Assembly (NCBI RefSeq): GCF_988242995.1 | Contig: NZ_OZ547043.1 | DNA length: 64,000 nt | Reading direction: 5' to 3' (one strand) | Program-made: the position numbers | In this document: positions 46,701-49,700 of the stretch, piece after piece | How positions within the stretch are numbered: position 1 is the first letter of the stretch | Layout: the number at the start of each line of letters is the position of its first letter

Positions 46701-49700
46701 ACCGCACAATGAAGATACGGTGCTTTTGTATCGTACTTATTGTTTCTGGTGCGCTGTTAACCGAGGTAAATAATAACCGGAGTCTCTCCGGCAACAATTT
46801 ACTGGTGGTTAACAAACTTCAGAACAGCAGGTAAGCCCGAATGCCGCCCTTTGGGGCGGCATATTTTAGATTATCCGATGCTGTTTAAAGTCACGCAAAA
46901 AACCACCCCAGCGACGTTCATAGAATGGCGCAATATGTTCGGTAATAAAGTGGCTAATTCCTTTTTCCCCTTTTTTCACCTGACAAATATCGATGGGTTC
47001 ATCGCCAGGTAATGTATCGGTCGCTACACTTCCCGCCGCCTGAATAATTTCTTCGATATCACCATCGGCTTCAATGCCAATAAGTAAATTAGGCTGTGCC
47101 TCTTCGTTCTCTTTAATTGAACAAATAAAAGCACGCTTCACCGGCTTAATAGTTTTAAATAAGGTGGTGAGTGAATCAATCATTTGTGCTGGCGGCTCTG
47201 CGACTTCCGATAATATCAGCGATTCACCCCCTTCCAGTACTTCCTGGCTACTCAGCGGATTTCCTTCTTCACCAATCAACAAACTGATTTCACGCGGCAT
47301 AAATTCTTTACCGGTCGGCAGTTTGGCATTAAGGAAGAGCGTTTCGCCAAGGGTCATCTCAAACAATGTGCGAACGGGCATTACGACAAATGCCTGTTCG
47401 TCTTCAACCGCCTGTTGAAGTGCTTCTAACGAGGTAAAAAAAGGAATGACGCTGGTGCCGTCTTCTTTTTCCCAGTGCTGTAAATCAAGCGCGCTATCTT
47501 CAACCACAGCCTCGCCCTGCGCCGCCGTACCCGGCACCCAGACGGTGGATTCCAGTAGAGTACGGAAAAAGGCCGGGCGGTGCGCCGGTTCGGTTGCTGC
47601 TTTTTTCAGCAGATCTTCAAGTTCGTTTTTTGTTTCGGACATAAGAACCACAATTCATTCAACGTTCGGGGCACAAGTGCCTGATGCGCTACGCTTATCA
47701 GGCCTACAAGGGAATCTCAATCTATTGGATTTTCGCAATTTTGTAGGCCAAATAAGACGTTTACGCCGTTAACAGATTAGCAATCGTGCGCACACCAAGT
47801 CCCGTAGCACCCGCAGACCACTGTTCAACCGGCGCTTTACGGTAAGTCGCCGAGCAGTCGATATGCAGCCAGCCTTGCTGATAGTTCTCAACAAAGTGCG
47901 ACAGGAAGCCCGCCGCCGTGCTCGCGCCTGCCGGATACGCCGCGCTTCCGGTATTGTTCAGTTCCGCAAAGTTAGACGGCAGCTGGCTGCGGTGGAACTC
48001 CGCCAGCGGCAGACGCCAGAACGGTTCATTCTCCTGCGCGGCACTCGCCAGCAAGCGACCGGCAAGCGCATCGTCAAAACTGAACAGCGCGTGATAATCA
48101 TTACCCAGCGCAGTTTTCGCCGCCCCGGTGAGGGTCGCCGCATCAATGATCAGTTCCGGTTTCTGCGCACTGGCATCAATCAGGCCATCGGCCAGCACCA
48201 GACGCCCTTCGGCATCAGTGTTCATCACTTCAACTTTTTTACCGTTGCGATAGGTAATAATATCGCCCAGTTTGAACGCGTTGCCGCTGATCAGGTTATC
48301 CGCACAGCAGAGGAACAGCTTCACGCGCTTGTTCAGTCCGCGCGTAATGGCAAACGCCAGCGCCCCGGTAACCGTTGCCGCGCCGCCCATGTCCGACTTC
48401 ATCGAGTCCATTAATGCGGTCTGTTTGATACTGTAGCCGCCGGAATCAAAGGTGATGCCTTTACCAACCAGGCACGCGTACACTGGCGCTTCTTTATCGC
48501 CTGTTGGGTTGTAATCCAGCGCCAGCAATACCGGGGAACGTTCTGAACCGCGCCCGACCGTGTGCAGCCCCATATAACCTTGATCACGCAGATCTTCACC
48601 TTTGGTGATCCGATAAGTCACACGATCGCCTGCGACGTTGCTGATCAGATCAACAGCACGCTGTGCCAGTTGCGATGGACCCAGCTCTTCCGCCGGTGCG
48701 TTAATGGTGTCACGCACCCAGTCGATGATCATCAGGCGGTTATCCAGTTCCTGGCGCTGGGCATCGTCCAGATCCGGCCACTCCACTTTACGTGTGCCTT
48801 TCGGGGCTTTGTAACCTTGCCAGAATGCCCAGCAGCGATCCGCATCCCAGTCTTCACCGCTTAACTGAACATGCTTGATGCCCAGACCGTCAATCTTGCG
48901 CGCCGCACGCTGGATCAGCCCCAGATCGTCTGTCCCGTTCAAATGCAGGGTAATGCCATCATTATTAATGCTGTAAGTCGCTTTTTCTCCCCAGCGCGCG
49001 TCGGCAGGTTGGGTAGAGAGGGTAATCTTCATCGCTTCTGTCATTCTAGTTATCCTTCTTTGTAAAAGGGCCGCCAGTTGGCAGCCCCAGGATTTTTCCG
49101 CTAAATGATTCGCGTTGCAGGACAAAACGCATTGCGTTTTGAACAGCGCTTGCGCTGGCCCCGGAGGGGTGAGGCCAAAAGGCCGAATCACGCGGCAAGT
49201 GAGTGAAGCCCCAGGAGCATAGATAACTATGTGACTGGGGTGAACGAGCGCAGCCAACGCATCTGCGGCGTGAAGCATGACGCGGAAATTATTCGGCTTC
49301 GTCCAGCCAGACTAACAAAATCGCTTCGAGGATTTTCTCGTTGGATGCCTGCGGGTCGTCGTCGAAATCTTCCAGATCGCAAATCCACTGATGCATATCG
49401 GTGAATCGAACCGTTTTCGGATCAAGATCGGGATACGCATCGTACAGTGCTTCGCCAATTTCGCGGCTATCGGTCCACTTAAGTCCCATACTAACCTCTG
49501 TTAATGCTCACGCGCATGGTTGATAGTGTAACGCGGGATTTCGACCACTAAATCTTCGTCGGTAACGCGCGCCTGACAGCTTAAACGGCTTTCCGGCTCC
49601 AGTCCCCAGGCTTTGTCCAGCATGTCGTCTTCCTGCTCTGAGCTTTCCGGCAGCGAGTCAAAACCTTCGCGAACGATGCAGTGGCAGGTGGTGCAAGCAC

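Follow-up and report, generated by a model that had tools for sequence, protein, structure and literature searches.

What kind of sequence separates the end of the isc operon from pepB, and does it bear on either? In the window, by which we mean the whole stretch of 64,000 nt that was analysed, hscA, fdx, iscX and pepB all lie on the minus strand according to the ORF list. The region is 100 % identical to Escherichia coli ST2747, for which RefSeq gives the same gene models and leaves the spacer unannotated. On the ORF list and the RefSeq annotation of this identical sequence, fdx (49501-49836, minus) is followed by iscX (49289-49489, minus), which encodes 66 aa and ends in a TAA stop at 49289-49291. 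The pepB feature (47761-49057, minus) includes the Shine-Dalgarno sequence AAGGA, the complement of 49053-49057; its ATG occupies 49044-49042 and the coding sequence runs to 47761. A spacer of 244 bp (49045-49288) is left between the two coding sequences. An earlier note on this DNA had placed an ERIC-like repeat of about 85 nt, thought to be short or rearranged, at 49199-49285, and had suggested that it may influence the 3' end of the isc transcript or pepB expression. Its placement between iscX and pepB (coding sequence 47761-49044) is correct. Our analysis indicates that this interval very probably holds the core, together with the right arm, of a full ERIC lying directly after the iscX stop, that the left arm of this ERIC is split off by a nested module, and that the whole likely forms part of the isc 3' UTR.

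The derivation of 49199-49285 from an ERIC is borne out by several measures. The ERIC core pattern CCCCAGGAGCNTANATAANTANGTGACTGGGG has one match in the 64 kb and none in 100 shuffles, and nhmmer with the K-12 ERIC matches 49190-49291 with E = 6.8e-27; by both pattern and nhmmer this is the only ERIC copy within the window. A 44-nt core query was rebuilt from the ERIC1R and ERIC2 primers, whose sequences are given in PMC3696847, and 38 of its 44 positions are identical in the central core at 49203-49246 (plus strand). Four of the six differences compensate each other in two pairs, 49219/49230 and 49222/49227, so that the central stem is preserved. The family to which the copy belongs is dispersed: at a cutoff of E <= 1e-5, E. 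coli genomes have a median of 12 places (range 2-18).

How far does the element extend? The size of about 85 nt proved too small, as the left arm and an insertion lie outside the interval first noted. The complete ERIC/IRU occupies 49095-49288, with its consensus orientation on the plus strand, and measures 194 nt (ends uncertain by about 3 nt), that is, a 125-nt ERIC and a 69-nt insertion at 49123-49191. These limits are drawn from the arms, from collinearity with other ERICs, from the fold and from the empty-site allele, in which the block 49095-49288 is absent. The left arm (TTTCCGCTAAATGATTCGCGTTGCAGGA, 49095-49122, plus strand) is identical to that of K-12, and nhmmer aligns 49095-49123 with ERIC positions 2-30. 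The rest of the ERIC, comprising the inner left arm (GCGGCAAGTGA), the core and the right arm, follows at 49192-49288 (plus strand), as delimited by nhmmer and by alignment to other ERICs. The inverted-repeat arms pair 49095-49120 with 49263-49288, and folds of the isolated element have the outer stem UUUCCGC/GCGGAAA at their base on both strands. In the nhmmer output the element is split into two separate matches; the left arm had been overlooked because the 69-nt module parts it from the remainder of the ERIC.

Comparison with K-12 shows why the copy should not be called a short or rearranged form. There the same ERIC is uninterrupted: K-12 reads GCAGGA, AG, GCGGCAAG, whereas the window reads GCAGGA, the 69 nt of 49123-49191, GCGGCAAG, so that the module stands in place of the AG of the K-12 ERIC with a net gain of 67 nt. 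The two spacers are identical except at this single insertion point. The window copy is therefore full length, interrupted by a nested module that K-12 lacks. With the insert removed, the remaining 128 nt are 97.7 % identical to the K-12 copy, and they align end to end with the 127-nt ERICs of Intestinirhabdus alba (77-79 %) and of Serratia sp. DD3 (72 %), both identities being computed over 130 aligned columns. The K-12 copy itself matches the I. alba and Serratia ERICs with nhmmer E values of 1e-17 to 1e-22. The earlier note had set an identity of about 60 % to the ERIC consensus as the floor; we find 72-79 % end to end against independent ERICs and 86 % in the core. Since the left arm (49095-49122) aligns with ERICs and the K-12 spacer is related, the identification as an ERIC survives both this threshold and the comparison of spacers. 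A REP/BIME identity was considered and dropped, as the sequence matches ERIC end to end and contains no REP-like unit.

ERIC/IRU elements were reportedly described by Sharples and Lloyd in 1990 and by Hulton et al. in 1991. The iscX-pepB copy resembles them in being an imperfect palindrome of about 125 nt with a conserved core, dispersed in multiple copies, intergenic, situated beside a stop codon and present or absent according to strain. It differs in three respects. The terminal heptamers are TTTCCGC/GCGGAAA, mutually complementary, instead of the canonical TATACCC/GGGTATA; no clear TA target duplication is found at the element ends, which are flanked by TT/TT and not by TA/TA; and in this strain there is the 69-nt interruption. 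The termini are a degenerate or compensated variant, and membership of the ERIC family stands given the other features.

What is the interrupting sequence? It is a four-hairpin module (49123-49191, plus strand), defined by alignments, by its score against Rfam RF02902, by a covariance model, by covariation and by folding. Its layout is H1 (CAAAACGCA/TGCGTTTTG), GAAC, H2 (CAGCG/CGCTG), H3 (GCCCC/GGGGT), H4 (GGCC/GGCC) and GAATCAC, and the linkers conserved among copies are GAC, GAAC, GA and GARTMAC. The covariance model, R1, was built from seven module copies; run over the fetched loci, it detected 17 full ones, and it scores the window module at 104 bits. Across the 17 copies 94.6 % of the cells are paired, 14 of the 22 pairs have changed on both sides, and none of 500 shuffles reaches the observed values; slid controls give 31-45 % paired in the 17-copy set and 25-51 % over both alignment sets. 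An alignment made by MAFFT only, and hence not fitted to the model, yields 94.1 % paired, with 7 of the 22 pairs changed on both sides. The predicted fold shows all four module hairpins. Inside hscA (50126-50202) R1 gives a weak match with E of about 1e-3, which we take as chance.

The module is predicted to reshape the ERIC fold. For the uninterrupted K-12 ERIC the fold is one long hairpin, with energies of -65.5 kcal/mol (z = -7.9) for the plus strand and -43.4 kcal/mol (z = -3.7) for the minus strand. When the ERIC with its module is folded alone, the outer stem is kept and encloses a multibranch of the four module hairpins and the core hairpin, on both strands; when the whole window spacer is folded, the minimum-energy structure is one without the outer ERIC stem. 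The module splits the left arm, and on these predictions it would leave the outer stem still able to form while a multibranched fold takes the place of the one long hairpin. ERICs with inserts of about 70 bp at particular internal positions, and still folding well, are said to have been described by Cromie, Collins and Leach in 1997, by Sharp in 1997 and by Wilson and Sharp in 2006. The present copy resembles them in having a 69-nt insertion at a fixed, recurrent internal ERIC position and a composite that still folds well as RNA; it differs in occurring in phylogroup-D-type strains such as 042, which may fall outside the genome sets of 1997 and 2006. ERICs and ERICs interrupted by about 70 bp are already known, and the iscX-pepB copy is a further member. 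The new points are modest: the allele series at iscX-pepB, the four-hairpin architecture supported by covariation, and the homology of the insert to RF02902 and to copies outside ERICs.

In what forms does the locus exist in E. coli? Among 5,426 complete genomes, a collection biased to clinical lineages so that the figures are counts and not population frequencies, about 2,860 (~53 %) carry the plain ERIC as in K-12, about 2,138 (~39 %) have an empty site with a spacer of 57-58 bp and no ERIC, and 424-436 (~8 %) share the window's arrangement of ERIC and 69-nt module; E. coli 042, PCN033 and O145:H28 RM12761 are examples. One aberrant genome, strain HH97, has a shortened, heavily substituted version. 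The empty allele was looked at directly in three strains, ST131, E. coli B and G12. Between empty and filled alleles the flanks have diverged, the sequence of the terminator hairpin described below differs, and the iscX stop is TGA in the former and TAA in the latter. With flanks so diverged, the two kinds of allele have the look of long-separated haplotypes and not of the outcome of a recent insertion, and the locus offers no evidence of recent transposition.

The two filled alleles raise a further question, namely which of them came first. The ERIC with its module might be ancestral at the locus, so that the K-12 form would have arisen by loss of the module and not the window form by insertion into a plain ERIC. 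The orthologous spacer of Escherichia whittamii contains the same module at the same junctions with 2-3 substitutions, and the ERIC arms of the window and of K-12 are otherwise identical, both of which would fit a loss. However, the K-12 junction is an exact canonical, uninterrupted ERIC sequence (GGAAGGCGG), which a simple deletion between GGAC and CACGCGG would not recreate; the module is restricted to a single locus in E. coli and to a minority of genomes; and recombination between species could account for the E. whittamii copy. We consider loss possible but doubtful.

What could the element do where it stands? The iscX stop directly abuts the right end of the ERIC. Read along the minus strand, the order is the iscX stop, the reverse complement of the ERIC, a GC-rich hairpin followed by UUUU, six bases, the pepB Shine-Dalgarno sequence and the ATG. 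The RNA of isc/pepB sense contains the reverse complement of the ERIC consensus orientation, which in the K-12 ERIC is the weaker-folding strand. The terminator-like hairpin (GGGGCUGCC-AACU-GGCGGCCC, then UUUU; 49064-49088, minus strand) has an 8-bp GC-rich stem in the minimum-energy folds of both the window and the K-12 alleles; in the empty allele a homologous hairpin with UUUUG right after iscX is the only structure folded. A simple promoter and terminator consensus scan of 48900-49600 on both strands called nothing, and the hairpin at 49064-49088 escaped it because it is followed by only four U, while the scan needs five T in eight bases; the assignment to a 3' UTR therefore rests on fold predictions. 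As the ERIC lies between the iscX stop and a terminator-like hairpin upstream of the pepB ribosome-binding site, it most likely belongs to the isc 3' UTR and would be transcribed as the distal part of that UTR in the isc operon mRNA, past the iscX stop and before the hairpin.

Related repeats offer a guide to the possible consequences. Correia/NEMIS MITEs are cleaved by RNase III, and the Yersinia ERIC acts with RNase E. The iscX-pepB element would resemble them as a hairpin-forming repeat co-transcribed with flanking genes and with the potential to alter transcript stability. According to the passages of PMC2229807, PMC3184786 and PMC10969869 that relate the work of De Gregorio 2005, Yersinia ERICs next to stop codons are co-transcribed and lower the upstream transcript through an exposed RNase E site, in an orientation-dependent manner. 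By this analogy the most that the hairpin of the ERIC RNA might do is to adjust how fast the isc 3' end decays or how much transcription reads through into pepB. The anatomy agrees with the suggestion of the earlier note that the repeat may influence the isc 3' end or the expression of pepB, and any effect on mRNA stability would be an extrapolation from the Yersinia work, the only functional precedent.

A stronger proposal would be that selection has made the ERIC, alone or together with the module, into a device that tunes termination or read-through from isc to pepB, or pepB translation, for instance by pairing of AUCCU with the Shine-Dalgarno sequence. The distance from the element to the ribosome-binding site of pepB is no more than about 45 nt, effects of ERICs on neighbouring transcripts are documented in Yersinia, and the minimum-energy folds of the filled alleles pair AUCCU, located upstream of the terminator hairpin, with AAGGAU, a pairing that the empty allele does not show. 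Yet the support is confined to minimum-energy prediction, AUCCU lies outside the ERIC, and all three classes of allele are frequent side by side, although the IscX and PepB proteins encoded next to them are identical or nearly so. Such a device therefore seems improbable. Any effect of the ERIC must be dispensable, since about 39 % of the genomes have no ERIC at the site, and this share of empty alleles argues against any required function. The likeliest reading is that of a selfish repeat, dispensable to its host and modulatory at most.

Could the module instead be a gene in its own right? In Rfam it matches RF02902 (AaHKsRNA22) at 49115-49187 on the plus strand, with 45.3 bits against a gathering score of 39.8, and the module copies of E. 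whittamii and Serratia DD3 are also above the RF02902 threshold. A copy in Mannheimia is a full member of the family (95.7 bits). This copy is not flanked by ERIC sequence; the pflB stop precedes it by 19 nt and a canonical terminator follows it. The window module has the same order of hairpins and linkers, and 23 nt (ACAAAACGCATTGCGTTTTGAAC) are identical to the Mannheimia member. It differs in being nested in an ERIC, in lacking the 24-nt internal segment of the model and in lacking a terminator, whereas the Mannheimia member sits in the pflB 3' UTR before one. Judged by its name, RF02902 presumably originates from the Aggregatibacter RNA-seq catalogue PMC5909427. The RNAs of that catalogue were detected by RNA-seq, and it assigns no function to the sRNA; the name AaHKsRNA22 was not found in its main text and had no match in a full-text literature search.

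Homology to this family invites the view that the module is an RF02902-type sRNA gene on the plus strand, antisense to the isc 3' UTR, which would act in trans or on the isc and pepB messages. In favour of this view one may cite the score above the gathering threshold on the plus strand, the covarying stems, the Mannheimia member followed by a terminator, and the RNA-seq detection of the Aggregatibacter RNAs of the catalogue (PMC5909427). Against it, the scan of 48900-49600 gave no promoter- or terminator-like site on either strand by which the module could be its own transcription unit, the internal 24-nt segment is missing, a repeat surrounds the module, its orientation relative to neighbouring genes can be either one to judge by a rough check of flanking ORFs, and about 92 % of E. 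coli genomes lack it. We judge an sRNA gene very unlikely. Weaker still, and hardly credible, is the reading of the locus as what is left, some 85 nt, of a truncated or rearranged ERIC without a partner arm: 49199-49285 alone does hold just the core and the right arm and nhmmer does give two separate matches, but the intact left arm lies 69 nt off and pairs with the right end, the copy without its insert is collinear with full-length ERICs, and the alignments and the uninterrupted K-12 allele refute it.

We return to the preferred reading, a complete ERIC split by a nested module, and ask where else the module occurs. In E. coli it is found at a single locus, once per genome and in module-bearing strains only, and a degenerate relative is present in another ERIC-like copy near uhpA in ST131. 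A scan for the exact pattern in one genome per bacterial species returned E. whittamii, Dickeya oryzae, two Serratia, five I. alba loci and Mannheimia haemolytica. The enterobacterial copies (E. whittamii, Serratia, Dickeya and I. alba) share one ERIC position, after GTTGCAGGA. A second recurrent site is located in the ERIC right arm, after GAGGA or GAGCGA, and one I. alba ERIC has modules at both sites. ERIC arms and a module without the ERIC core were observed at loci of I. alba (L009), Klebsiella pneumoniae (L023), Salmonella enterica (L024) and E. coli (L004). A metagenome scan added one new context, a module about 70 nt after a tRNA-Arg gene on one contig. The orientation of the module relative to flanking ORFs looked mixed in a crude check. 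In plasmid and phage collections the only matches were mislabelled chromosomes of E. coli, Klebsiella and Salmonella (0.5-5 Mb), and these searches thus gave no evidence for a plasmid or phage vehicle. A full-text literature search for the hairpin-1 sequence returned no match.

We tentatively propose that the module is an independent structured mobile unit, GAC-H1-GAAC-H2-H3-GA-H4-GARTMAC, that targets ...GGA^ sites in ERICs in one orientation. On this proposal RF02902 would be a mobile RNA/DNA-structure cassette and not a conventional sRNA gene, and the strictly conserved H1 might serve as the site recognised by a mobilising or binding protein. We regard all this as a conjecture with perhaps a minor chance of being right. 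Hairpin-guided, orientation-specific mobilisation of the IS200/IS605 type was considered, and neither an autonomous partner nor a matching geometry was found; that the module moves in this manner is speculation.

What are the implications of these observations? The practical weight is little: ERICs have long been known, and this one is dispensable and implies no phenotype. Gene callers can be misled by an open frame that extends from pepB upwards across the ERIC. At the same time the locus provides a natural series of three alleles, empty, ERIC and ERIC with module, which is usable to measure the effect of a 3'-UTR ERIC on the operon of an essential pathway. If the module is indeed mobile, it would yield the composite, doubly inserted and core-less ERIC forms, and it would also have settled outside ERICs and across orders, in the pflB 3' UTR of Mannheimia, on the tRNA-Arg contig and in RF02902. 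The module ties interrupted ERICs to a Pasteurellaceae Rfam 'sRNA' family, and suggests that RF02902 may be a mobile structured cassette.

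ERIC copies that lack the core were found at four loci, in K. pneumoniae (L023:386-515), S. enterica (L024:362-503), I. alba (L009:77-213) and E. coli ST131 (L004:~1185-1300), where they consist only of the ERIC arms and the four-hairpin module. These core-less variants look like recombination products of a left-arm and a right-arm module, a type of pair that is present together at locus L012. A right-arm module also resides in a second ERIC of Escherichia whittamii (L007:3269-3429), which lies 48 nt past sseB and ahead of ryfA; the covariance model of the module, R1, matches it at 3306-3396 with 48 bits. 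The window is devoid of ERIC at the place matching this sseB-ryfA copy. The module without ERIC flanks was observed at two places: in Mannheimia haemolytica it sits in the pflB 3' UTR, ahead of a terminator (L014:7042-7142), and in a metagenome a tRNA-Arg(ACG) gene is located ~70 nt upstream of it (L018:1128-1210). The iscX-pepB spacer allele of E. coli HH97 (L002:1499-1641), a single occurrence among 5,426 genomes, retains a whole ERIC left arm, with a shortened core and right arm that harbor many substitutions.

Elsewhere in the window, the RNA features recognised at the Rfam level comprise STnc490 (11894-12017), sroE (33363-33454), IS128 and ryfA downstream of sseB (46253-46867) and the iscRS stability element (54286-54395). 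On ERIC sequence, at 49189-49355, the Vibrio antisense RNA V_AS5 and the Shigella sRNA CssrA give sub-threshold matches, which suggests that both families may include ERIC-derived segments.

In the minimum-energy folds of the filled alleles, the spacers with ERIC, the pepB Shine-Dalgarno sequence AAGGAU is paired with AUCCU, which is positioned immediately 5' of a terminator-like hairpin (window 49052-49093, - strand). This pairing is absent from the fold of the empty allele, which has no ERIC. As RNA, the consensus (+) strand of ERIC folds much better (L001:1546-1678 and window 49093-49290), than the complementary strand, with -65.5 versus -43.4 kcal/mol for the two strands of the K-12 copy, and it is the weaker-folding strand that the mRNA carries at the iscX-pepB locus.

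The pepB frame (- strand, window 47761-49278) has no upstream stop across the entire ERIC and module, and the ORF finder therefore gives a 505-aa ORF starting at ATG 49278, versus the 427-aa PepB from ATG 49044. This open frame is a likely source of over-extended PepB N-termini in automatic annotation.
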